A program made the translations under genes and the position numbers. Shown in pieces: positions 1,675 through 24,855 of a stretch of DNA of 26,893 nucleotides (position 1 is the first letter of the stretch; each line of letters opens with the position of its first letter). The stretch comes from Geosiphon pyriformis uo1 (Eukaryota > Fungi > Glomeromycota), in contig JAAOMT010000306.1 of the NCBI GenBank assembly GCA_016748015.1, positions 1-26,893 on the forward strand. The letters are read 5' to 3'. The notes beneath the pieces are model-generated. The model worked only from the letters and a program-made list of their open reading frames with translations. It was not told the DNA's origin and searched no databases.

Positions 1675-3340
1675 CTATTTTGATTGGTTTCAATGATTTG
1701 CTGGGTTTTGTTTTTCCTCTCTTCTGACAAACATTACAATTTTAAACATATTAAATAATATTTAAATACATGATTGGCCAATAGTATCTTTTTTTGGTTT
1801 TTTTTATAGTTGCTTCTTTATTGAAATGTCCTGCTGTTGGATTAGCATATATGTTATATAGTATTGTTTTCTTTTCTGGTTCTGTAATTACTCTGGTTGG
1901 TTAATCTGAATTTCTTCTGTTTTTTTAATAAAGTATATTTTGGTGAGTAATAAAGTATTTTGATTGTTGTTTTATGTTGTTTTGTTTTTTTTGAGATAAT
2001 TTTTCCTTGAACTGTTAAGTATTGATATAGTGTTAAAGTTGTTAGTATTTTTGTGTTTATTTTTTGTTATATTTTTGGGTTAAAATATTTTTAAATTTGT
2101 TTTATTTATAACAAACCATTAGTATTTTTATTTTTATTTTTTATAATGTACAATATAAGTATATAATAAAAGTTTTATTTTTTATCATACATAATAATTG
2201 TTTCTAAATTTTTGTTTTTAAATTGATGTCAATTCTTTGTGATTAGTGTATATCTTGAATTTTTGGCTTAAGTATTTTTTCTACTTGATAAATGCCCAAT
2301 AAATAGTTAAGTATTTTAATGCTGGTGTTTCATAGTTTTTTTCAGTTGGGCTTAAGCTTCAGCTAGTATATACTACTGAATGTTTTCTTCTACCCAGTTT
2401 TTTTTGAAATAATATTGCTTTCAATGCTTGGCCTAATATATTTGTAGTAATAATAAATAACTTGCTGTAATCTGAATAGATCAAAACTAAAGCTTGAATA
2501 AGTCTTCTTTGCAAAATGTCAAAAACATCTTGTTAAGCTTCTATTTATTCATATTTTATGTTCTTGGCTTAAAATTGGTAGAATGGTTGAACCAGTTTAG
2601 AAAAGTTTTGGATGAAATGGCAATAATATTCTGTAAATCCCAAAAATGCTCTTAATTCTGTAAGATTTGTTGGTACTGAAAAGTTCTTAACAATTTTTAA
2701 TTTATTGAAATCTGTTTTAATGCTGTTTTTGTCTATGACATGTCCCAAAAATTTCAGTTTTGTTTTGCCAAAGAAACATTTGGTTGTATTTAGTTTTAAT
2801 CCAGCTTTTTTTAATTTCTCAAACACTTGCTATAGATAATAAAGATGATTATCAGATGTTTTTAAGAACACATTGGTGTTATTCAAATAAACTACTACTG
2901 ATTTCTATAGTAACTTAGTATAGACAATTTCCATGAGTCATTGGAAGATGGCTGGTGTATTGGTTAAGCTGAATGGCATGATTTCAAATTCGAAATTTTC
3001 TTTTCTTGTGATGAATATGGTTTTTTTTTTGTCTTCTGGTTTTATAGCTACTTGTTAGTAATTATTATCTAAATTGAGTATTAAGAATCATTTTTTTTTT
3101 CAAAAGTATCAAATAATTTTTGAATCTGTAAAGTCAGATAACTGTTTCCACAAATAATACTATTAAGTTTTTTATAATCTACACAAAAGTAAATTTTTCT
3201 ATTCTTTTTCTAAACTAATACCACTGGTAATAATTATAGACTTATTAATAGTTGAATTGGTCTATTGTTTAGTATTTAGTTAATTTCTTATCAGATAGCT
3301 TTGCTGGTGGTATTTTGTATGCTTTTTGTTTAATTAACAT
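1675..3340 (-). pseudogene. pol: E1 pol: reverse transcriptase, RNase H and N-terminal integrase (many stops/frameshifts)
   Basis: EFEIMPFSLTNTPAIFQ, VVVYLNN (YLDD after two G>A), KCFFGKTKLKFLGHVI, LRAFLGFTEYY; RNase H LSPTEKNY; integrase AGHFN...RYYWP...CNVCQK ending at PIKI. Confidence 0.9.
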
Positions 3341-3800
3341 AACATCTCTTGTTTTGATTTAATGTTAAATAATGTCAGTTCTGCCAAATTCATTTTTATT
3401 GGCAAAGATATCAGTAAAATTGTTGGTAGTATCTTGAACTGTATACATTGAAGTGGATCTAAGTTTTTTATATTTATTTGTTCTAATTTTTTTGGTTGGA
3501 GCAAATAACATTTCTCTTGTTTATAGATTGTTTGTAATATAATATTCACATATCTGCACAGTTATAGAAAATCTGAAATGGGGTTTGGTAGTTAGTTTTC
3601 AGCTTCTGGGCTTAAGTATTTGATGGTGGTTTTTTTTGGCATTTCAATAATGTCTCTTATAATGTTATAGACCAGAATTTTTATGTGACTAGAGTTTTTA
3701 ACTAGTATATAGAGATTGGTGAATCCAATTTTTTCTGATTCACAAATTGTAGCTTCTGCTTCAAAAATTTGAACTTGATCTTTTACTTTTTTTTTATGTA

Positions 3801-4292
3801 CTAGTTGTATGATAAAATAAAAATTGATTGATGGATGAAAATAATTTCTTTCTTGTTAATAACTTCTTCTTCTGCCAAATTAATTAGTATGTCTATTTTA
3901 CCCATGAATTTGAATCCATTTATCTTTCTTGCTGTTATTCCTAATTCCTCTCTCTTTCTTACTAATACTAGTTGAACTATTTTAACCAGAGACAAGAATA
4001 TTGTCTGTGCTATCTTTTCATTAGATTTTACAGTATAGATCTTTTCTGAGTCGTTTTGTAGTATTGCAATAATATTTTTTACATATTCTGCATTAATGAT
4101 TCCTTTTCTTATATTGATTTCTCTTTTTGCTAAACTACTCCTAAATTTTAGTTGAATTATTATTGTTGTTAGAATTTCCAGTGCTACTTTCAAAACAATA
4201 CATGTGCATGAATGTGATTCTAATTTTATGGCAACTTTTTTTGGATATTTCAAATCAAACTCTACATTGATATTATGTATGTATTCTGACAT
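3801..4292 (-). pseudogene. dut: dUTPase domain within E1 pol
   Basis: Five trimeric-dUTPase motifs in decayed form: EFDL, RSSLAK, GIINAEY, EKIAQ, RKINGFKFMG (RGxxGFGSTG). Confidence 0.85.
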
Positions 4293-4554
4293 AATATCTT
4301 CATTGTTATTGTTGAACCATTTTAATTTTTGGATTTTTAAAAGATCATGGAGTGTGATGTATTGTTTGGAGTTTAAATTAAGGTCTGAATTATTGCTGTT
4401 GTTATTGCTATTTTGAATAGAGCTAAAGCCATTGTTATTGTTATTATTGTTATTATTGAAGTTTAAATCTGAATTAAATAATGATTCTAATTCTGTTTTG
4501 TAGCTGCTAATTGGTTTTTTTTCTGAGATTATGTAGATTATGTGTAGTAATAAA

Positions 4555-5200
4555 TTGTAAATAATGTTACAATTATTACAATACTAGAAATCACATAAAA
4601 TCAAACAGTGGTTACATAAGTGAGTATTAAGCTGTTTTAAATATTGTTTTTGCTTTTTTTTAGTAGATGCTAATTCTTGATAATGTTCATAGAATTGTTT
4701 TGGATCCATAATGTCAAAAATAATATTAGAGTTTGGGATTTAAATGCTCTCTTCAGGTTCTGATAAGTTGTTTTTGATTGTTTTGATTTTTTTAGAAACA
4801 TGCTCTCAATTTTGACAATTATCATTCTCTAAATTTTATTGTCATTATAGAAACAGCCATCTAAACATTGTACAGCTCTCCTCTAAACAGCATTTATTGG
4901 CATTTTTTTTTTTACCCAATCACATATAAGAATCGTGTATTGACATAATTTGTCACACATTTTTCTATGACCAGAAATATTGTTCCATATTTTTTGTCTA
5001 AGAAAGTCTCTCTACAAACAAAACATAATTTGTTGTCCTATTTTTCTTGCTGTTTGGATTGTCCAAAACATTCAAAAACACATAAGTGACAATAATATTT
5101 GGTTGCTATTGGCCATTTCTTATTGTTACTACAACATGTGCTTATTGTAAACAATTTTTTGTCACATTTAACACATATAAGCTTGGATTGATGGTAAGTT
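4555..5200 (-). pseudogene. Cysteine-rich (multi CxxC) domain between protease and dUTPase in E1
   Basis: Manual translation: LICVKCDKKL...YYCHLC...K*DNKLCFVC...CDKLCQY...CNHCLILCDF*YCNNC. Confidence 0.7.
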
Positions 5201-8101: not shown

Positions 8102-8531
8102 TATTATAGATGATTATTTGGGGTGTTAATACAAATAACAAATCTGTAATTTGGGGCTTAATAAGTAATATGGTTAATAATATTTGAAAATTTTTGTGTT
8201 TAAAAATTTCGGTTGAATTTTTAGTATAATAAATAAAGATTCAAGTATTGTTTTATCCATAGCTTCTTGGAATCACAATTCCATCAAATTTCTTTTTCAG
8301 CATAGTGGCTAGCAATCCTTTAATAAGCAATTCTTAATTTTTATGTGTTCTACTCTTTCACAGGGGTCTTTTACTAGGCAATTTTTGATGTTAATAACTC
8401 AGTGTTTTTATTTTTTTAATCAATTAATAAAAACCCAAGAAAAAAAAATAAATAAAAATAAATAAAAAAAATAAAAAAAATAAAAAAAAGGAAGCCAAGG
8501 CAGTTAAAGTTAATATCTCATCAATAGCCAT
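8102..8531 (-). repeat. E1 5' LTR (family C), 3' half
   Basis: Inverted homology to 9030-9547; ends AATAATCATCTATAATA (decayed ...TGTAACA) just before the PBS. Confidence 0.8.
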
Positions 8532-9547
8532 TGTTACACATAGAAAAAGAGAAAAATAATACATAATCAATAAAAAAAAAACACATAATATTAAATTAGC
8601 CAATTAGAATAGAAGAAAAGAAAAGAGGATTTCTTGAAAAATCCTGGATGTTTCAAAAAATTTAAGATTATTCAAAAAATTTCAGATGTTTTAAAAGTTG
8701 AGAATTTTTTAAGAAATTTTAGACTTTTCAGAAAATCAAAAATTTTGTAGGAAATCTAGCAAAGAAAAAAAATTTTTCATGTAAAAAAAATTATGTATAT
8801 ATAGCAGTAATATTAGAAAGCAAGAAAAACATTTCATTTAGAATAGAAATTTCTATTTCCATTTATTTATTAGTTATTTTAAGAATAGTTACTATTAATA
8901 GAAATAAAATCATCTAATATTAAATAAAATATACTTTTTATTATTCAAACTATGTTATTGCTATTTGTTTGAAGATTCAATTACTATTTTCTTTTATCAA
9001 CACTTTATGTTAATAAAACCCAACTCTTAATTATGGCTATTGATAGGATACTAATTGTTCTTACCTTGGCTTAATTTCTTTATTTTTTGGTTTCTTTTAT
9101 TTTTTTTTATTTGGTTTTGTTTTGCTGTTTGTTAATTGTTTAAAAATTAAGCACTAAGTAAATTGATGCTAAAAAAACTGGTAAAAGACCTGTGAAATAA
9201 GAGTAAAACACTCATAAAATTAAGGATAGCTTACCAGAAAAATTACTGATCATTATGCTAAGAAAAAAATTCAACAGAATTGCAATTCTGAAAGACTACT
9301 AAAAAAAATTATCTGCCATCAAGCTAAAAAAAAAATTTGATAGAATTGTGATTCCAAAAGACTACTGAAAACAAACATTGAATCTCTGTCTATTATACAA
9401 AAAACTCAACCAAAACTTTCAGATTATTTAAAACATTCAAACTGAGAAAACTTTCAGATTATTAATACAATTAATATCATCAAGCTATTAAGCACTAAGT
9501 TACAGGTTTGTTATTTGTTTCCAGACTCCAAATAATCATCTGTAATA
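8532..9547 (+). mobile_element. Solo LTR (family C) inserted in inverted orientation into the E1 5' LTR
   Basis: Starts TGTTACA, ends TGTAATA, flanked by CCAT at 8528-8531 and 9548-9551; removing it restores CTCTTAATCATGGCTATTG, matching the uninterrupted sequence at ~9024-9042. Confidence 0.85.
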
Positions 9548-10043
9548 CCATGATTAAGAGCTATTAATCCAGTATTATTAAGTATTAGCAATTATTAACA
9601 TGAATTGTTAATAAAAAAAAGATAAATTATAGTAATAATAAGTATTTTATTGATATTTGATGTTTTCATTTCAAGTTATAAAATATTATTGTATGAAGGA
9701 ATGAATAAGAAAATTGAAACTAGAGATTCTAAATTAAGAATTTTTTGTATTAATTCTGTCTTTTCTGGTTTTAACACTACTGCTATATATACATAAATCT
9801 TGTTATACAAGATTCTTTGAATTCTTTAATTTTCTAACCAGAAATTTTAAAATTTCTGGAATTCTGCAATTCCTTAAAAGAAATCCTGGAATTCTGAAAT
9901 CTTGCAATTTCTCCTAAGGAAATTCTGTAATTCTGCAATTCTGCAATTCTTTAACAAAAATCCTAAAATTTCTTTTTACTACATCTATTTCTGATTGGCT
10001 AATTTATATATTAATATGTAATTCATATATTTTATAAGTAATA
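9548..10043 (-). repeat. E1 5' LTR (family C), 5' half (U3)
   Basis: Minus start TATTACTTATAAAA matches the copy at 24229; contains TTAGCCAATCAG, GAATTNCAG arrays and TATATATAGC. Confidence 0.8.
9991..10002 (-). promoter_or_regulatory. CCAAT box in LTR-C U3
   Basis: TTAGCCAATCAG; retained at 24269-24280 and as TTAGCCAATTAG at 8596-8607. Confidence 0.5.
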
Positions 10044-10774: not shown

Positions 10775-11028
10775 ATAATAGTGTTTCAATTAATTTTTAA
10801 ATGCAATTTTTGCTAATATTTTGTCATTCAGTCTTAATTGTATAATTTATTGTCTAAGATTTTATGAATATAAAATAGTTTATTCTATTTATGTTCAATT
10901 TTCCATTTTATTGTTTTTTGGTTCTAATTTTGTGTAAGAAAACTTTGTTTTTAACTTTAAATTCATAAGTAACTAGCAGTAGTTTGTTATCATGTTGTTT
11001 TTTTATTGGACTTGAAAGTGTTTAATAT
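10775..11028 (-). pseudogene. pol: E3 integrase C-terminal (GPY/F-like) region
   Basis: ...IKHFQVQ*KKQHDNKL...FKVKNKVFL...FYIHKILDN...N*LKHYY; continues the frame from 18687. Confidence 0.65.
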
Positions 11029-11646
11029 TGTTACAGTTAAAACTCATAGTTTTTATTAGTTATCACATGTATTAGCCACATTATTTTTAGAAAAGTAATC
11101 ATTGACCTGATCATTGACCACTTTTGATAGCTATATAAGCAATGAATCTCTTAGCTGTAGAAAAGCATATAATAACAAGCATCTGAATAATCAAGAATAA
11201 ATAAAATAACAACTTTTATCTCAATCCTTCTCTTATTGCTAATTTCTCTTTTTCTATCTTCAAGTATCTGAACATCTTAAAGATAAAAGATTACTTGTTC
11301 TTTTTCTGACATATATAATTGTAGCATTTGAAAATTATTTGAATAAACATGACTGAAAAGCACAAGTTGATACTTGATATTGAATTCTAAGAGTGCTGAC
11401 ATGAAGCATAGAATTATACCAGTGGTGATCAATTGTTGACAGTATAGATTATTTTTCTACTTACAAATTCCCCAGTTACCTTTAAAAAAAATAGCAACTG
11501 AGATATTTTATAAGACTGATCTTGCACATTGAATCCATACTCATTCAATTCACTCTTTAAAGTTGAATTCCCCTTTGATTATTTCTATTACTCTACAATC
11601 CTGTTCTCCTTTGCTATCTATTAGCTTGTTATTCCAATCCATAACA
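11029..11646 (+). repeat. E2 5' LTR (618 bp)
   Basis: TGTTACAG...CATAACA; ~93% identical to 17972-18682 apart from two indels; TATATAA at ~11132. Confidence 0.95.
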
Positions 11647-11652
11647 TAAAAG

Positions 11653-11670
11653 TGGTGCTCTCTGTGAGGT
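11653..11670 (+). other. E2 primer-binding site (probably elongator tRNA-Met)
   Basis: TGGTGCTCTCTGTGAGGT fits the complement of CCA, discriminator A, acceptor stem and CUCAC T-stem strand typical of eukaryotic elongator tRNA-Met. Confidence 0.8.
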
Positions 11671-11698
11671 TGTCAAAATCTATTTTGTTTTCTATTGT

Positions 11699-13251
11699 AT
11701 GGGTGATTATTCATACCTGCCACAACAATCAGAAGAACACTTTAAAGCATACAACAAAAATGATCTAAACTTTATTGAACTTAATCTTTTGCCCTCCTGT
11801 TTGATTTGCTTTCCCATTGAAGAACAATCCAGCAGACAATTGCAAGACTTTGGAACTGGTTCTTGAACAAGCATTCAGCTGAAACCTACACAGCTTATAC
11901 AATCTATTACTTTAACCAAGCTTATTTTGAAGATGACTTTAAAGGAAGAAACAACAGTATCAATCAGCTTTTATATTCTGTAATCTTTGAACAACAGCTC
12001 CCTAATTTTGAATATCTGAATTATCAAATTCACATTTGGATTGCTGTCCATCAATCAACAGAAACTTTTTTTGAAACAGAAGAAAAAAGCTATCAAACCA
12101 CTTCTGTTTTTGATTTCTTTTCAAGTGAATCAGAACACTCCACACAAACAGTTACACCTGAACCAATGGCTTAAAACCCTCTACAACAAAACATTCTGAT
12201 TGCCCTCCAAGATATATAGACTGTTTTAGGGCAAAGAAACAACACCCCATTACCATTATTCAGAGATAATGCCCAAGATCCAATTGAATGGTTGGATGAC
12301 TTTGAGAGAGCTGTTACAGCCAACCAATACGATGATAAGTACAAGTTTCAAATTGTTGGTGGCTACCTCCAAGGCTCCCCTGCTACATAGTTTTTACAAA
12401 AAACTGATGCTAATGCCCATCAAAAAATCATTAGATAGATGTCAACAAATGCCAGAAAAAACAACATCTCTTTCACAATCCAGTTTGAAAACAAGTTCAG
12501 AACTCCAATTTTGATATCTAAGTGGTGCATGGAATTAGAAAGAAAAACCCAAGGCTCAGGAGAAATAGTAACTAAATATGCCAAAGCAATCAGAAAATTG
12601 ATCAAGCGTGTAGACTCTGGAAGGAACTGGACAGAAAAGCAAAAAATTCATTTCTTCACAAAAAGACTGAGAACTGATTTATCTTATGCTCTTTGGCCTT
12701 TTTTGGCTCTAAAAGATAACCCTACAATAGACATGACTATTGAACTTGCCCAACAAATTGAAGACAACCAAAAAATGCATTTGGGGTTTACACTTCCAGT
12801 TTTTGCTCTTGTTTCTGTCATGGCTCCTACTCCTCAAATGGCTGCTACTTCTTTTGCTGCCCAAACTCAAGACCCAAATGAACAGTTAATAGATAGACTT
12901 ACAGCAAATCTTGCTTGGCTATTAGAACTATTAGCCCAAGCAGTTTGAGATAATCAACAACCCCAAAGACCCAGATTTGAACCACGCTTCAATCAACCTT
13001 AGCAACCATCTTATCAAAGACAACAAAATTATAGCCCACCTGTGTGCTATCACTGTGGATTAACTGGATATTTTTCAAGAGATTGCAACAATTTTCCCTT
13101 ACTCCTTTCAGCTTCCAAAAACAATGATAACCAAAACAACAGAACTATTAACAACAATGCCTCCAATCAAAGACCTAATCATGCCAATATCAATTTCTTT
13201 GGAGAGGATCCCCTAGTTAAAGCCACTGTTTATTAGCCTTTAAACTGGTAG
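11699..13251 (+). pseudogene. gag: E2 gag (one frameshift near 11850, several in-frame stops)
   Basis: ORFs 11863, 12439 and 13042 share one frame; QDPIEWLDDFERAVTANQY, QGSGEIVTKYA, KIHFFTKRLR; knuckle CYHCGLTGYFSRDC (H>Y). Confidence 0.9.
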
Positions 13252-13279
13252 ACGCACCTTCAAAGGGTGAAAGTGCAAG
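13239..13279 (+). other. Predicted -1 ribosomal frameshift signal at the gag/pol junction
   Basis: T TTA AAC in gag-frame phase, gag stop two codons later, pol frame is -1 and open; hairpin CACCTT-CAA-AGGGTG follows. Confidence 0.7.
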
Positions 13280-16200
13280 CCAATCAGAAGAAAACCCTTT
13301 TTACACCTTTAACTTAACTAATGATAATCATGACATAGATGAACTAGCAATTAACACCACAGAATCAACCAAAAAAAAGAAGAAAGCCAAGGTTGATTTT
13401 GTTTTAGATTCCAACAAAGCCTCAACTTCCACTGCTGATAACAATAAGCCACCAAAAGCCAAAGTTTTTAAGAATTTTCCAAAATTGGAACCTCCAGAAA
13501 TTATACAAAAATCTGGACCCTGTTCTGTTGTCAAAGATCTCATGGAAACCCCAGCACACATTATCTTTGGCCAGTTAATGACCTATGCACAGTTCAGAAA
13601 AGAGCTCCGCAAATCTCTAATCCCCAAAAAAAAAACACCAAAGACCAATAAATGCCCTCGCCAAGCTGGACTTGCTGACAACAGCAATTTTACTCCTCTA
13701 ATTTGCAAAGCACAAGTGGCTGGTTACTTCATTGACTTGATCCTAGACAGTGGATCATCTGTTAGTGTAATTGCCAAACACTTCTTTGAAGCAATTGGCA
13801 GAAAAATTGATGAACCTTTCACCCAACCAATGACCAACATATATGGTGACAAGAAGAAAGGTCTGGGCATTGCCAAAGCTATTCCTGTCCACATTAATAG
13901 CATCAATATTGAAACTGACATGGAAGTTTCTAAAGCTAAAGAATACACCATCATTGTTGGCAATAAGTGGCTCAAGAAAGCAAAAGTTTTACTTGATTAT
14001 GAACTTTGTGAGCTAACCATAAGATGTGGTGAAAAACTCATTGTGGTTAAATGTCGCCATTGGACAACTCCTCCAGCAACCAAACAAAATCAAAAAGATG
14101 AGCAATCAGAGGAATCAGATGATGAAGAGAGTAATGAAGAAAATGAAGAACAAAAAGAAACTGCTGAACTCGTCTACACCACCTTCACCAACAATGACAA
14201 GCCACTAGACAATGTTAAAGCTAATAAAAAGAGAATCATTGTAAATGACAAGCTGATCTGCTGGCCCTACTATGATATTCTAAGAAGAACCTTTGACCAA
14301 AAGCCTGGCAAGAAAGCCAAATACAGTTATTGGCGGCATGGCTCTTGTGCCCAGTGCTGGTGCAATAAACTTTTGTATTCTCTAAGTGATGAATGCAAAT
14401 CATGCCTGATCTATTACAAAGATTGGAAACCAATTAGCCTAATACCAAGAGATGAATTAAAAGAAGTACAGAAGTTCTTTGAAAATGAACCACCTGAGAT
14501 CCAATCATTAATAGTAAAACAAAAAGAACCCTCCCTAGAAGAAAAAAAGATAGACATTGAGAATCTGTTGGCAAGAAACAGCCCAGTTATCTTAAAAGAA
14601 AGTGATACCCCAAGACAAACTCATATGATACAACACACCATTACCACCAAAGAAACTTGCCCTATCTATTTGAAGCCTTACCAATCTAATCACCGAAATG
14701 ATAAGTTCATCAAAAAAGAAATAAACTAGATGAAAAAACTTAGATTCATACAAGAAACCAAGAGTGAATGGGCTTTCCCAGTTGTAGTGGTATTTAAGAA
14801 AGATAGAACCCTATGCTTCTGTGTTGACTACCACTAATTAAATGCCATCACTGAAAGAGACATGTACCTACTTCTCAAGATTGATGCAATGCTGAACCAA
14901 TTCAAAAATGCTGCTTTCTTTTCAACCATTGATCTAACTGCTAAATTCTGGCAAGTAGAAATGGATCCAGAAAGCCAGAAGAAAACCACCTTCATCATCA
15001 AGTATGGCACCTATGAATTCACAGTCATGCCTTTTGGTTTCACCAATGCCCCTCCCACCTTTTAATGCTTAATGGATAAAGTATTTGAATCAGTGAAAGA
15101 AAACTTTGTTCTGGTCTATCTGGACGATATAATGATGTACTCAAAAACCTGGGATGAATACCTTGAACATTTGCAAAAAGTTTTTGATCTTCTTAAAAAT
15201 GCAGGTCTCAAGATTAACCCAATCAAATCTTTCTTTGAAAGACAATCCACCCAATTCTTTGGCCATCTTATTATAAAAGATAGAATCTTCCCTGATCCAG
15301 CCAAAGTGGAAAAAGTTCAGAACATAAAACAACCAATAAATGTTCATGAATTACATTCTTTCCTTGGTTTGGTCTTTTATTATCGCAAATTTGTTAAGAA
15401 TTTCTCCAAAATTGCCTCTCCACTCAATTAGCTACTTAGGAAAAATGTCAACTACCATTGGGACACACATCAGCAGAAAGCATTTGAAACTCTCAAAGAA
15501 AAATTGGTTACAGAATCTATTCTCAAGCAACCTGATCTGGATCAACCTTTCATCCTTTACACTAATGTATCTGGCTATAGACTTGGTGCTGTTCTCTCAC
15601 AAAAAGATGAAGATGGCAGAGAACATGTAATAGCCTATGTCAGTAAAACCCTTACATCAGCAGAAAAAAATTATTCAGTTACTGAGCAGGAATGCTTAGT
15701 AGTAGTTTGGGCTACCAGCTACTGAGATAAGTATTTTCTTGGTGTAAAGTTTTTGGTGATAACAGATCACCAAGCTTTGGTTTGGCTGCACAACAAGAAA
15801 AGGCTAGAACATAAACAGATAGCCTGCTGGATACTCCACTTGGATGAATTCAACTATGATATTCAACACCATAAAGGAGCTAATCATCAAAACGCCGACG
15901 CTCTTTCTAGACTTACCATCAAGTGACAGTACAACCTCTCAAACCAAACCAACTTAATTATTAGTAATTCTCTTACAACTAAACACGATAATAGACTTGG
16001 ACAACTACTCTGCCTTAATGGAATTTTTGGGTAAAGGACAATACCCACCAAAATACACTTGACAACAAAGAGAACATTTGTGCAAACAATCAAATTTTTA
16101 TTTGATCTGCCAGAACCAATTATATAAAAGAAATAGAAAAAATCCTGACCACCTCCAGAGAGTCATAAGATTTGAAGAAAGAAAAATTGTAATCTACAAT

Positions 16201-17303
16201 ATGCACACTGATTCATTAGCTGGACACTTTGGAAAAACAAAAACAATTCAGAAAACTCTAGCTCACTATTATTGGCCTACCTTAAGAAAAGACATTGCTA
16301 AGTACATCATAACCTGTGATACCTGCCAACAAAAAGGAAAACCCAATTGCAAAGAAGACATCCATCCAATCTCTGTTGGCCAACCTTTTGACAGAATTGG
16401 TATAAATGTTGTTGGACCATTAACAGTAACTCTTGATGGCAACAAATACATTATTACAGCTACTGATTATCTTACAAAGTGGGTAGAAGCAAGAGCTACT
16501 CCAGATTAAACAGCAGTTTCCATTGCTAATTTCATTTATGAAGATATCATTTGTTGTCATGACTGCCCCAAAGAACTTTTATCTGATAGAAGAAGAGCTT
16601 TTCTTAGTACACTAGTTAAAAAACTTTGTAGAAAAATGGGAATACGTCACAAACTTTCCTTCTTTTATCACCCCCAAACAAATGGCCTAGTGGAACATTT
16701 CAATAGAACACTGTGTGAAACCTTAGCCAAAACAAGTAAAGAAACAAACTTATTGGACAAAATACTGTCTTCAGCTTTGTTTGCTTATAGAACTGTGAAT
16801 TATAACATAACAAGTTATGAACTCTTTTATCTGCTCTATGGACAAATGGCAATACTATCAATAGAAACTGATATTGAGACAATACTCTTTGAAGAAATCA
16901 CAATAAGGAATACAAAGACATTTTGCAAAGAAGACTTGATACTATTCTTGACTTATTGGTAGAGGCAAGGATAATTGCCTTTGAAAAGATAAAACAGTTC
17001 CAAAAGAAGCTTAAGAAAAAGAAAACCTATAAAACACTTTTCTTAAGCATTGGTGACTTGGTTTTGAAATACTGTTCAGACAAAAACAATGTCTATGGTA
17101 ATAAATTCTCTAGCTGATGGAAAAAACTCTTTATAGTCAACAAAGTTCTGAACAATGGTTCTTATATTCTTCAAGATCAATCCGGAACAATCTTTAATGA
17201 TCATTCTGTTTATGGCACGTGACTCAAGAAATATCACAAACAATCTAATTGGTTACCTGTTGTGGTAATACCAACCCAAATGATCAGCAAAAATCAGATA
17301 TAA
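13239..17303 (+). pseudogene. pol: E2 pol: protease, insert, RT, RNase H, integrase; no chromodomain
   Basis: LILDSGSSVS, IIVGNKWL; FCVDY, MPFGFTNAP, VYLDD; YTNVSG...EQEC...TDHQAL...NADALSR; HTDSLAGH...CDTC, IGINVVGP, LSD, NGLVEHFN. Confidence 0.95.
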
Positions 17304-17344
17304 ATAAATGCACCACTTCCAAAACAGAAGTATCTTCAATTAAC

Positions 17345-18002
17345 ATGAACAATTATTTTCTGGATCAAAACATTCAAAACGCTTTCTATACTTTTCATAA
17401 GTATTAGTTTAAAAACTATCCAAATGCTACTTTGATTATTGGAAAACAAACTACAATAACTGACAACAGTAGAACACATACTGTTATCAGACCAAAGAAA
17501 ACAACTATCAGAAGAGAAAGAATTGGTAGCAAAATGAATAAGTATTTGCTGGAAAGTATAACAGCAGCAATACTTGCACCTTTCATCACAATTGGAAAAA
17601 CAATTAAAAAAATCTTGCCCATAAACAAAAAACTTGTCATATGGAAGACAATTAAAACTCTATGGTTGCCTTAGTGAAATCATAGAAGACATAAAGCTCA
17701 TAAAGAAAACAACTTTTGAAATACAAGTAGAAATTTTGGACATTGTACGATTAGATGTCCCAAGAGTTTTGACCATTGCAAGAAGAGCCAAAACTCTTAT
17801 ACAAAGATTTGGTCTCTTGGACATAAAGCTCATTTTGCCTCAAGTTTTATATACCTTATTCACAAAAGACTTCAACAAACTAGTTAGTTTTAAGTTAGAT
17901 AAAATCTTTCAAATAGAGTATCCCCTAAATAATTTGATTTCACTGGAGCTCAATCTCTTTAGAGAGAATGATATTACAGTTGAAACTCATAGTTTTTATT
18001 AG
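17345..18002 (+). pseudogene. E2 extra ORF3 downstream of pol, unknown function, not env-like
   Basis: ATG at 17345, one TAG, then ORF 17432-17674; one extra base in an A-run near 17605-17632 would join it to ORF 17634-18002 (~218 codons); runs through the PPT into the 3' LTR. Confidence 0.55.
17961..17971 (+). other. E2 polypurine tract
   Basis: AGAGAGAATGA directly before the 3' LTR. Confidence 0.7.
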
Positions 18003-18682
18003 TTATTACATGTATTAGCCACTGATGTCATATGATTAGCTACACTATTTTTAGAAAAGAGATTATTGACCTTATCAATGACTTGACCATTGACCTGACC
18101 ATTGATCTAATCAATGACCTGATTAATGACCTAATTATTGACCTGATCATTGATCATTTTTGATAGTTATATAAGCAATGAATCTCTTAGCTATAGAAAA
18201 GCATGTAATAACAAGCATCTAAATAATCAAGAATAAATAAAATAACAATTTTCATCTCAATCCTTCTCTTATTGTTAATTTTTCTTTCTCTACCTTTAAG
18301 TATCTGAACATTTTAAAGATAAAAGATTACTTGTTCTTTTTCTGACATATATAATTGTAGCATTTGAAGATTATTTGAATAAACATGACTGAAAAGCACA
18401 AGTTGATACCTGATATTGAATTCTAAGAATGCCAACATGAGGCATAAAATTATACCAGTGGTGATCAATTGTTGACAGTACGGACTATTTTTCTACCTAC
18501 AGATTTCCCAGTTATCTTTAAAAAGAATAGCAACTGAGATATTTTATGAGACTGATCTTGCACATTGAATCTATACTCATTCAATTCACTCTTTAAAGTT
18601 GAATTCCCTTTTGATTATTTCTATTACCCTACAATCCTGTTCTCCTTTGCTATCTGTTAGCTTGTTACTTTAACTCGTAACA
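17972..18682 (+). repeat. E2 3' LTR (711 bp)
   Basis: TATTACAG (TG>TA)...CGTAACA followed by TSD ATAT. Confidence 0.95.
18061..18156 (+). repeat. 12-bp minisatellite, 8 units (consensus GATCATTGACCT), in 3' LTR U3
   Basis: Eight imperfect units read directly; only two units at 11097-11120 in the 5' LTR. Confidence 0.9.
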
Positions 18683-18686
18683 ATAT

Positions 18687-21050
18687 AAATAGCTGTTATT
18701 TATTGTTTTTCTTCCAAAGTACTAAGCAAAATATAAGCTCTTTATTAAAGTGTTTTTTAAAAGTTTTCTTAATTAATTAATTATATTAAATATGTTTCTA
18801 CTGTAAAATTAATTGGCAATATTGCTGTTTTTTTATAGGTTAAATTAAATAGTGTGTGTTTTATAGCATCTAGTTTTAGTATTCTGTATATTAATAATAT
18901 TAATAGAATAAAGTTATTTTTATCTTGTTTAAAATTATTTAAAACTTTGGCTAATAATTTACACAATGTTTAGTTAAAATGTTTTATTAATTTATTTGTT
19001 TAAAAATAATAAAATAATAAAAATGATCTTTTAACATTGAATTTTTCACATATTTTTTGTATCAAGTTATTTATGAAATATGTTTTTTGATTAGATAAAA
19101 GTTTAATTGGACATTTATGTTTACAAATAATGTTTTTTTAGATGAAATTTGCTATTAATTTTGCATTTGCTTTTTAAATGACTCTGATTTTAAACTATTT
19201 AGTAAAAAAATTTACTGTAACTGCAATATAACAATTTTTTAAGTAATAATAACTAATAGGTTGATTAAATTGATTCTTATTCTGTCAAAAAGTTGTCCAA
19301 CTTTAATTGGATTTAGAGATTCAATAAAACAAGTTTTTTTTCTTTTTTAATAACTATTCCATAATTCTATATATTATCAAATGTTTTTTTACATGTAAAA
19401 CCAAAAATAATGTTCTAATGTTCTTTAAATTGTACTATTTTTTTCTAAATATGCTAAAGATAAATCTGTGTACATATTATAAAGAATAGTTTCTTTTTTG
19501 TTTTCTTGAATAAGTCTGAGTAAATTGATTGAATTTCTATGATTTTGATAATAAATTTTGTTGTGATAAATAAAATATTGTTTTGTTTAGTATTGTAATT
19601 ATTGTTTTTTAATTAAAAACCAGTTTTCTGACATAGTAATAGTTTCCAAATAGTTTTTAATGTTGTTGTTATTTTCAGGTTTTATTATCTGTTGATTATT
19701 TGTTGTTAAGCTAGTAGATTGTAGTAAAGTTGGTATTGATGCTAATTTTATCTTATTTTTAAAAGATTATTTATGTTTATATATAATTTTTTAAATTTAT
19801 AATAAACAATATATTTTAATTAACTAAAAAGTCAGTTCATTAAGATTAATTTACACTAAGCTTAAAACTCTATTTTTTAAGCCATTTAAGACTAATGTTG
19901 TTAGTTATAATGTCAAATTTATTTTTATTGTAGAAATATTGCTAAAAGTGTTTAAAAGTCTAGATAATAACTGTTGTTTTTAATTTAGTTAAGCTATATT
20001 TGAGTTTTGTTAACTTAAGTATTCTACTGACATATGTAATTATTTGCTCTTTGTCATTGTTACTTATTTGTAATAAGATGGCACCAAAAGCTATATATAA
20101 AGCATTAGTGGCTAATTGAAATCTTTTTTTGAAGTCAAAATAGACAAGAATTAAAGCAGTTATAAGTCTTTTTTTGAAAGTATTAAATATTTTTTGTTAA
20201 ATTGGGGTCTATTAGTTTTTAACATCTTTGTTGATTAGTTAATTGAAAAATTTGGTAATTTTTGAGAATTTTTTAATGAATTTTAATAGTAGTAAGCTAA
20301 TTTAATAAATTCTCTTTATTTTATAGTATTTTGAAGAATTTAAAAGTTTTTAACAACATTAATTGTTTTTAAATTAAGTTGAACTCTATCTTTGTTTACA
20401 ATATATTCAAAAAAAATTAAACTTATTTTTCTAAAGTAATATCTTTTAATGTTTAACTTTAATTTTACTTTTTATAATTATTAAAAAACTTGTTGTAAGT
20501 AGATTAAATAAGCTTCAAATATTAAGAAATAGATATCAGTATCATCAAAATAAACAACTACTAATTGCCATAAAAGTTTTTTGTAAACAATATTTATAAG
20601 TTATTGAAATGTTGCTAATATATTGCAAAGTCTAAAAAACATTATATTAAATTCATAATTCTCTTATTGTGTAATAAATGCTGTTTTGATTTGCTAGTAT
20701 TCACTTTCCAAATCTAAAGTTAAGAAGTACTTGACTTTTTTTAAAGCATTTAACATGTTATTAATTCTTGATAATAGGTAAACATTTTCAAATATAATAT
20801 TATTAAGTTGGTAATAGTCAACACAAAATCAAATTTTCCTATTTTTTTTTGACCAGAACTACTGATAAGACCCAGGAACTTTTTAATAGTTGAATAAGAC
20901 TATTGTTGAGTATTTTTTTCACTTTTTTTTAATAAATTGGTGGCTTGTAAATAAAACTTGATAAGCTTATTGGTATTTTAATAGAACATTTTTTGTGTGG
21001 ATTTTATGTTACATAATATTGGTTTTTCAAGATTATTGTTATCTTTGGTA
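18687..21050 (-). pseudogene. pol: E3 pol: RT, RNase H, integrase (very decayed)
   Basis: SSWVLSVVLVKK, FCVDY, KTAFIT, VVVYFDD (~20545), PIKVGQLFDRI (~19290), TAILPINF. Confidence 0.85.
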
Positions 21051-21554: not shown

Positions 21555-21970
21555 CATTCAATTGAACCAAAACTTTGGGTTTTTCTATCATTTTTGTCTA
21601 ATTGTTCTCTTTGATTAACTAATTGTAAACTCGAAATGTTAATTAAGAATAAATAAATTGCTTAAGCAATCTTTTTAGCATGTTTTATCTTAAATAACTT
21701 TTTTGTTTTATTTTGTAGCATAATTGTAATGTCTTTATTGTATCTTGTATCTATAATTTTTTCTCTTATATTAATTTTTTTTGCTGGCCAGAAGTGATTA
21801 AGAAGCAATTTAAAATATTGCTTCTAATGATATTTTAAAAGCAATTTTGAAATTAATTTTTATTAAAAATTTTGGTTTAAGAACCAAAATATCTTTTTTT
21901 AAATAATATAAATCATATTCTGCATCAATTTTGTGAGCTTTTTCTGGCTTGATCTCTTGGCCATTATTGT
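21555..21970 (-). pseudogene. dut: dUTPase domain within E3 pol
   Basis: PEKAHKIDAEYDL, IAS*SLLASK, IIDTRY, KIA*AI, RKTQSFGS: five dUTPase motifs, colinear with the E1 copy. Confidence 0.75.
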
Positions 21971-22056
21971 AAAAGTACTTGAGTTGTATGACAAGCTAAT
22001 TTTTGATCAAGTAGATTAAAGTAGTTGTAATTTTTTTTTAGATTTAGATTTTCTAT

Positions 22057-24228: not shown

Positions 24229-24835
24229 TATTACTTATAAAAATTAAAAGTATTGTATATTTAGAAGATTAGCCAATCAGAAGTAAGCATAATAACAGAG
24301 GAATTTCAGGATTATTCTAAAGAAATTGCAGGATTTCAGAATTCCAAAATTTCAGAATTTCTCTAAAGAAATTGTAGAATTCCAGAAATTTTGTATAATA
24401 CCAATTATGTATATATAACAGTAGCATTAGAAGCAAAAAAAGACAGAATTCAGTTCAGTTTTAATTTAGCATCTCCTTTTTTATCTATTAATTAATCTTC
24501 ATTTCACAGATAGTTACTATTAACCAAAGTGAATTCATTAATCATATCAAATAAAACATACTTATTATCATTTAATTTATATTATTATTATTTAATTAAG
24601 AATTTTTATCCAATTTCTATTATCAATACTTAATCATATTGAAAAAATAGCTTTTAATCATGACTATTAACAGAATACTAATTTTTTATTTTCTTTTATT
24701 TTCTTTTATTTATTTATTTATTTTTATTTTGTTGTTTTATTGTTTTATTAACTGATTAAAGAATTAACACATAGAGTACTGACATCAAAAATAGCATTGA
24801 TAAAAGACCCAAAAATAAGAATAAACACTCGAAAT
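24229..24835 (+). repeat. LTR family C, 3'-truncated copy
   Basis: Colinear with 10043-9552 (minus) and 8590-9220; homology stops near 24835. Confidence 0.75.
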
Positions 24836-24855
24836 TTAAAACAACAAACTTTGTT

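Follow-up and report, generated by a model that had tools for sequence, protein, structure and literature searches.

Positions 1 to 26,893 of contig JAAOMT010000306.1 of Geosiphon pyriformis (the window, at its full length of 26,893 nucleotides) contain a decayed long terminal repeat (LTR) retrotransposon, here called E2 (11029-18682), from a family in which cytosines have been replaced by thymines on both strands. This C-to-T hypermutation is real, family-wide and strong, and it occurs in a lineage where it is unexpected. The earlier note on this DNA had considered the changes notable if the host lay outside Dikarya, and the host does lie there, because all 120 matches listed (of 193) for the gag-protease frame of E2 come from G. 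pyriformis, a member of Glomeromycotina, and the best of them, gene model G9A89_002526 of that species, has exons that are residue-for-residue identical to the E2 locus.

The 5' LTR (11029-11646) and the 3' LTR (17972-18682) have 618 columns in common, and a recount reproduced exactly what the earlier note had given as approximate: 45 substitutions, of which 29 are C/T, 16 are G/A and none is a transversion. The two length differences between the LTRs (21 and 72 bases) are in and next to the array of 12-bp tandem units that the 3' LTR contains. The probability of 0 transversions in 45 changes is 1e-8 if the transition share is 2/3 and 4e-5 if it is 0.8, and the pair differs (p 2e-7) from 22 control LTR pairs with 28 transitions and 20 transversions, which were hand-picked, one near-identical flanking pair per locus, from 177 repeat alignments of retrotransposons of other eukaryotes met in scans of viral sequences (4 loci) and prokaryote genomes (79 loci); the pooled 177 alignments, with 5160 transitions and 3888 transversions, overlap strongly and were kept out of the statistics. 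Other repeat pairs in the window have transition:transversion counts of 102:30, 67:10 and 20:11 at 74-80% identity, and from 33:12 to 28:33 below 72% identity. By 3' neighbour, the differing fraction of available C sites in the E2 pair is 5/6 for CpG, 8/27 for CpC, 19/82 for CpT and 13/81 for CpA, so that just five changes are at CpG, as had been noticed before; by 5' neighbour it is 16/78 for T, 14/58 for A, 8/24 for C and 2/30 for G. The T/A allele is found 22 times in the 5' LTR (12 and 10 by strand) and 23 times in the 3' LTR (17 and 6; Fisher p 0.22), and the differences are evenly spread (Kolmogorov-Smirnov p 0.78). With both strands hit in both LTRs, the view that the changes arose in the chromosome and not by editing of cDNA is upheld.

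Direction, context and tempo of the changes

The changes are polarised from C to T on both strands. Within 11320-11650, the 5' LTR has T/A at 16 of the differing sites, and at ten of these C/G makes up at least 40% of the family depth in contigs of the public run X1 (five of the other six are near stretch ends and one is a CpG); at none of the ten differing sites where the 5' LTR has C/G does the T/A allele reach 40%. Five further sites in this interval have derived T in both E2 LTRs, which may mean that some change came before insertion or hit both copies. Across the whole of E2, 1501 of 1700 variable places in run X1 are transitions, a ratio of 7.5 that includes inherited differences. Summed depths in this run were not taken as copy numbers, and nothing was drawn from runs X2 and X3, which have only 15 and 2 contigs on E2 and whose kind was guessed.

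The family alignment consists of 119 paralogous gene models (the 120 listed matches minus the E2 locus). Deviations from the column majority number 4428, and 3800 of these are of the C-to-T/G-to-A types; Glu>Lys occurs 715 times and Lys>Glu once, and Asp>Asn 536 times against 11 in reverse. At 363 sites in these copies, non-CpG C-to-T changes occupy 3263 of 29251 cells (11.2%), compared to 0.37% for T-to-C and 0.11-0.26% for each class of transversion. When changes common to more than two copies are dropped as inherited, private changes other than C-to-T amount to 130 of 179712 cells (0.07%), about 150-fold below non-CpG C-to-T. A second, dUTPase-bearing family (120 matches listed of 195, all from Geosiphon) has 2858 C-to-T/G-to-A types among 3937 deviations, with raw counts of 502 versus 14 for Glu>Lys, 322 versus 80 for Asp>Asn, and 158 Val>Ile versus 144 Ile>Val. 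At 90% identity, the 120 matches listed for each family are all singletons. Seven control clusters (one of Rhizophagus irregularis, one with a Paraglomus member, and five others), made up of intact relatives, do not repeat the pattern: their events number 177 for C-to-T, 113 for T-to-C, 75 for transversions and 25 for multi-step changes, compared to 223-277, 17-19, 27-32 and 14-20, respectively, in three random sets of 15 Geosiphon copies; the control clusters are capped at 90% identity, favour intact selected copies, are not matched to the Geosiphon sets and give no proof that decayed Rhizophagus copies are free of the pattern. One Rhizophagus protein (P0237) has five C-to-T-type and two other changes in 91 columns.

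Sequence context was read from the codons of E2 in the window, whose neighbouring bases are only a proxy for the ancestral context. The non-CpG rate per cell in the 119 copies is 0.177 after T, 0.102 after C, 0.082 after A and 0.071 after G; by 3' base it is 0.121 before A, 0.116 before C and 0.103 before T, and it is equally flat (0.10-0.125) at sites where the 3' base is fixed inside the codon. All non-CpG contexts are elevated (0.059-0.203). At ten former CpG columns, Arg is kept in 153 of 752 cells, a loss of about seven times the non-CpG hazard, inflated by the choice of columns that split into Arg, Cys, His, Gln or Trp. The order of contexts is CpG far above TpC above other C. The earlier description of the process as promiscuous holds in that every C context is hit, but the process is not blind to context, since CpG has about seven times the hazard of other C and a 5' T roughly doubles the rate family-wide.

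Ordinary decay of CpG, cDNA editing before insertion, or an assembly artefact would be supported by two observations: CpG is nearly gone from the window (observed/expected 0.11), and the five sites with derived T in both LTRs may predate insertion. As the sole cause all three are refuted: 27 of 45 LTR differences are at CpT or CpC (in line with the note's own reading that not every change traces to CpG), codon-fixed sites change at 0.10-0.125, both strands are hit in both LTRs, and contigs of the public run contain the same variants; in wheat repeats, where CG, CHG and CHH are methylated, the transition ratio is no higher than 2.8 (PMC2996936). Explanations of this group are scarcely credible. 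DNA deaminases that prefer TpC include the APOBEC and DddA types. The action of such an enzyme on chromosomal repeats would account for the higher rate at 5'-T sites (0.177 versus 0.071-0.102) on both strands and for the lead of Glu>Lys and Asp>Asn in both families, but it is improbable given that the preference is only about twofold, that CpG is the top target and that the changes are not clustered. Geosiphon is a fungus that lives at the soil surface, and ultraviolet damage at dipyrimidines would fit the highest rate being at 5'-pyrimidine sites (0.152). It is very improbable as the cause, because purine-C-A sites, which contain no dipyrimidine, still change at 0.068 and because tandem double changes are not in overall excess (72 versus 81 expected), though Gly>Asn alone is (24 versus 13).

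The changes arose independently in each copy: 22728 are common to copy pairs, compared to 23994 expected under independence. The C-to-T load per copy ranges from 0.9 to 21% (median 11%) with a variance four times binomial, and the loads of the plus and minus strands correlate (rho 0.58). True repeat-induced point mutation (RIP), with a DIM-2-like or an unrecognised RID-like enzyme making homology-triggered premeiotic bursts of C-to-T changes, would be expected to leave strand-coordinated bursts. In the 119 copies there is neither strand asymmetry (strand z variance 0.98) nor an excess of same-strand runs (1607 of 3143 adjacent changes on the same strand, 1674 expected), although many rounds could blur such runs. 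The near purity of C-to-T and the large variation among copies suit RIP, which DIM-2 can run without RID in Neurospora (10.1101/115501), and the arbuscular mycorrhizal (AM) clade is said to have RID (PMC8298701); but there is no CpA preference, the standard indices are negative (TpA/ApT 0.78, substrate index 1.48), and Dataset S1 of PMC9963178 has no RID1 row for Geosiphon, so that RIP proper is an unlikely explanation. The absence of strand runs speaks for gradual accumulation rather than a few RIP rounds, and many small events at a rate that also depends on place fit better than one or two heavy rounds.

The coding regions carry the same mark. In the reverse transcriptase (RT)-RNase H region of E2 (14727-15926, plus strand), compared with homologs from outside Geosiphon at 126 conserved columns, 23 of 27 changes are C-to-T/G-to-A, compared to a random expectation of 13%, and none is the reverse. 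Two neighbouring elements on the minus strand, E1 (2221-4583), an older Ty3/gypsy element with a dUTPase, and E3 (19879-21008), a third and more decayed RT-RNase H, have 37 of 45 and 41 of 47 conserved-column changes of these types. E2, E1 and E3 form a series of rising C-to-T load (23/126, 37/109 and 41/106 conserved columns hit) at GC contents of 36, 26 and 20%, with 4, 8 and 6 other changes. Of the lesions that the earlier note had attributed to the process in E2, the zinc-knuckle His replaced by Tyr (codon TAT; His is kept in 13/13 matched paralog knuckles) stands, as do the stops at 12388 and 12436, which are Trp in 14/14 and 4/4 paralogs, and the stop at 15063, which is Gln in 112/120 homologs; the stops at 14835 and 15723, where homologs mostly have Lys and Phe, have no traceable C-to-T origin. 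The change from YLDD to YLNN was misplaced: YLDD is intact in E2 (15117), and YLNN sits in E1, within 2800-3087 on the minus strand. The 120 best RT-RNase H matches, from a search restricted by filters on length and word, include none from Geosiphon, a result consistent with an absence of intact pol copies.

Candidate mechanisms

On balance, the process is somewhat more probably than otherwise a gradual, methylation-coupled C-to-T mutagenesis of repeat chromatin, through which Geosiphon retrotransposon copies lose cytosines after insertion. This mechanism is favoured because DIM2-like genes are listed for Geosiphon (14231 and 17547, together with a full DNMT1, 1384, and HP1; PMC9963178 Dataset S1), because the cytosines that DIM-2 methylates lie in every context (10.1101/115501), and because Dim2 of Zymoseptoria is associated with >95% C-to-T mutations in methylated regions during mitosis (PMC8016269). 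The Geosiphon DIM2-like proteins are 25-28% identical to DIM-2 of N. crassa (PMC9963178 Dataset S1). In the predicted pathway, repeat chromatin would be methylated in every context by methyltransferases of the DIM-2-like and DNMT1 types, including a presumed non-CG methylation in Geosiphon; the methylated cytosines would be deaminated gradually over many cell divisions, presumably mitotic ones, either by an enzyme or passively with poor T:G repair; methylation would then be the cause of the C-to-T mutations, and single-copy DNA should be spared. The raised loss of CpG fits DNMT1-type CG methylation on top of a DIM-2-like activity. Two further Geosiphon C5-methyltransferase models (12536 and 12541) could also be candidates (PMC9963178 Dataset S1). 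Rows 8679-8682 and 9324-9334 of the same dataset give Geosiphon these two models and a KMT6/EZH-like protein, though the preprint text says that KMT6 was lost in Mucoromycota.

Several results weigh against this mechanism. CpA is not favoured over CpC and CpT (0.121 versus 0.116 and 0.103), and known DIM-2-dependent mutation is CpA-specific. The 5'-T preference is weaker in the dUTPase-bearing family and is not visible within the E2 LTR pair, where only GpC is low. Rhizophagus and Gigaspora each have one DIM-2-like gene, and the R. irregularis control cluster lacks the pattern (41 events are C-to-T, 28 are T-to-C, 16 are transversions and 3 are multi-step) despite such a gene, so that the gene alone is not sufficient. 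The correlation of C-to-T load with private other changes (rho 0.17) lies between that predicted by a clock (0.35, P 0.02) and that of no link (0, P 0.04), and the process is therefore not a simple clock.

A genome-wide C-to-T mutator, arising for example from weak uracil or T:G repair and visible in repeats only because these are free of selection, is an unlikely alternative for which the weak positive link of load with other changes can be cited, together with the flat 3' context, the use of both strands and the absence of clustering, all of which fit unrepaired spontaneous deamination. Against such a mutator, the older elements E1 and E3 have the same spectrum at higher load, so it would not be a brand-new defect; the load differs 20-fold among copies of one family; and the spectrum implies an equilibrium GC content of 1-5%, compared to 29.25% in a Geosiphon genome that is 64% repeats (PMC9453076 Table 1) and 41.2% LTR elements (PMC11952901). 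Taken with the like spectrum of the older elements, this single, indirect argument from GC suggests that the process is limited to a compartment of the genome.

Methylation-coupled mutagenesis can be taken a step further, as a tentative and rather doubtful proposal: Geosiphon may have a RID-independent, repeat-directed C-to-T defence with a signature of its own (CpG hit far more than TpC, and TpC more than other C); an extra DIM-2-like paralog, present in Geosiphon and Jimgerdemannia but absent from Rhizophagus and Gigaspora, would drive it, such that a RIP-like defence would be older than Dikarya and would have been missed because CpA indices are blind to it. The numbers of DIM2-like genes are two in Geosiphon, three in Jimgerdemannia, two in Endogone (one of them short), and one each in two Gigaspora and three Rhizophagus species (PMC9963178 Dataset S1).

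Structure of E2 and its surroundings

E2 is a Ty3/gypsy LTR retrotransposon of G. pyriformis, with TG...CA LTRs, a 4-bp target-site duplication (11025-11028, identical to 18683-18686), and the order gag-protease-RT-RNase H-integrase. All of its features are on the plus strand. The 5' LTR is followed by a primer-binding-site-like motif that starts with TGG (11653-11669) and was seen in the sequence, a decayed, capsid-like gag (12232-12948; PF19259 weak at E 0.008, below the cut-off) with the two internal TAG stops that correspond to Trp, and the zinc knuckle with Tyr at the His position (13045-13086). A 502-aa open frame (13221-14729) encodes an aspartic protease (PF08284) and is the last exon of G9A89_002526. 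Beyond the decayed RT-RNase H region, a decayed integrase (16063-16962; PF17921, PF00665) lies in another frame, behind a stop 3' of RNase H (15924-16063). A polypurine-tract-like run (17961-17971), likewise seen in the sequence, precedes the 3' LTR, whose tandem array (18065-18153) has 7.4 copies of the 12-bp unit versus about two in the 5' LTR; many joints in run X1 point to variation of this array from copy to copy.

Contigs of run X1 join the flanks of E2 and skip 7658 bases, equal to the element (7654) plus 4, with a short side of 25-28 bases, which is moderate evidence of an empty site. These empty-site-like joins (11023-18684) have a depth some 2.5-fold that of most contigs, and the target of E2 is probably itself a repeat, or else the insertion is polymorphic. 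The annotated gene G9A89_002526 (11699-14729) is a model spliced around the stops of a dead retrotransposon, and the 240 listed matches of the two family searches look like artefacts of the same type.

The whole window is transposon debris with a GC content of 14-37% and CpG at about one-tenth of expectation. The dUTPase (PF00692) of E1 is at 3801-4583 and that of E3 probably at 21563-21971, both on the minus strand; the 120 listed matches of the dUTPase search being Geosiphon gene models, the dUTPase count of the annotation is largely derived from transposons. Inverted AT-rich repeats at 8102-10043 and 24229-24839, about 70% identical, may be remnants of a DNA transposon or a miniature inverted-repeat transposable element. 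A degenerate LTR motif matched 122 stretches in metagenome contigs, which were rejected as chance hits because none of 203 loci matched the window by blastn (E 1e-8). Eukaryotic Ty3/gypsy elements, in some cases with an intact LTR pair, are present in many prokaryote assemblies (loci L125-L203), where they are most likely contaminants; fungal host genes sought in five contaminated assemblies with PF07714 gave nothing usable.

Significance and comparison with known systems

A literature search, which did not take in the Geosiphon genome paper and its supplements (these may bear on novelty), found no report of C-to-T hypermutation in Geosiphon or other AM fungi. A kingdom-wide survey restricts RIP-like mutation, with a CpA signature, to Ascomycota (PMC12543289); Geosiphon turned up neither in its main text nor in the supplements searched (12 of 19). 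One paper finds no signatures of RIP in Gigaspora margarita or Mucoromycotina (10.1101/2021.03.30.436303), and the words RIP and transition are absent from a survey of AM transposons (PMC11952901). A directly counted, roughly hundred-fold excess of C-to-T in a Glomeromycotina genome, to which standard indices are blind, would extend the known range of repeat mutagenesis and would suggest that DIM-2-like enzymes are its ancient core. For this lineage, the ages of LTRs and the landscapes of repeats would be strongly overestimated: the E2 pair is 7% diverged with no other kind of change in 618 bases. Hundreds of annotated Geosiphon genes look like spliced remnants of hypermutated retrotransposon copies.

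The process is RIP-like in outcome but is not classical CpA RIP, and it is likewise outside the CpA pattern of the Zymoseptoria mutator. It shares with classical RIP an almost exclusive change of C:G to T:A (45/45 in the LTR pair; 11.2% versus 0.07% per cell family-wide) and a chromosomal origin, after duplication, on both strands. It is not filed as RIP because the tests for CpA preference and for strand runs failed: the indices are not positive, and strand-coordinated bursts are absent. As in RIP of Neurospora crassa (10.1101/115501), C-to-T changes on both strands of repeats bring stops, falling GC and lost identity among copies; unlike that RID- and DIM-2-dependent process, the changes in Geosiphon come without CpA preference, positive indices, strand runs or a listed RID.

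The Dim2 mutator of Zymoseptoria tritici (PMC8016269) resembles the Geosiphon process in producing >90% C-to-T changes in transposons, in involving a DIM-2-class gene with no need for RID shown, and in a plausibly gradual accumulation. It differs in that >98% of its mutations are at CpA and CG is spared, whereas in Geosiphon CpG is the top target at about seven times the rate of other C, with no preference for CpA and a mild one for TpC; the Geosiphon process, in a member of Glomeromycotina, is read from sequence. The TpCpG hypermutation of transposons in Pucciniomycotina (PMC3318451) is also outside Ascomycota, and there too a 5' T and a 3' G both raise the rate, but partial matches to TpCpG are not elevated there, whereas all non-CpG contexts are elevated in Geosiphon. 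An earlier claim of RIP outside Dikarya, for Entomophthorales (PMC11105155), was made from dinucleotide indices, whereas in Geosiphon the substitutions were counted directly and the indices are negative. Finally, the passive deamination seen in methylated wheat transposons (PMC2996936) is a likeness in that methylation in multiple contexts raises the transitions of LTR pairs, to a ratio of 2.8 in wheat compared to 45:0 in the Geosiphon LTR pair and 7.5, inherited differences included, across the family.

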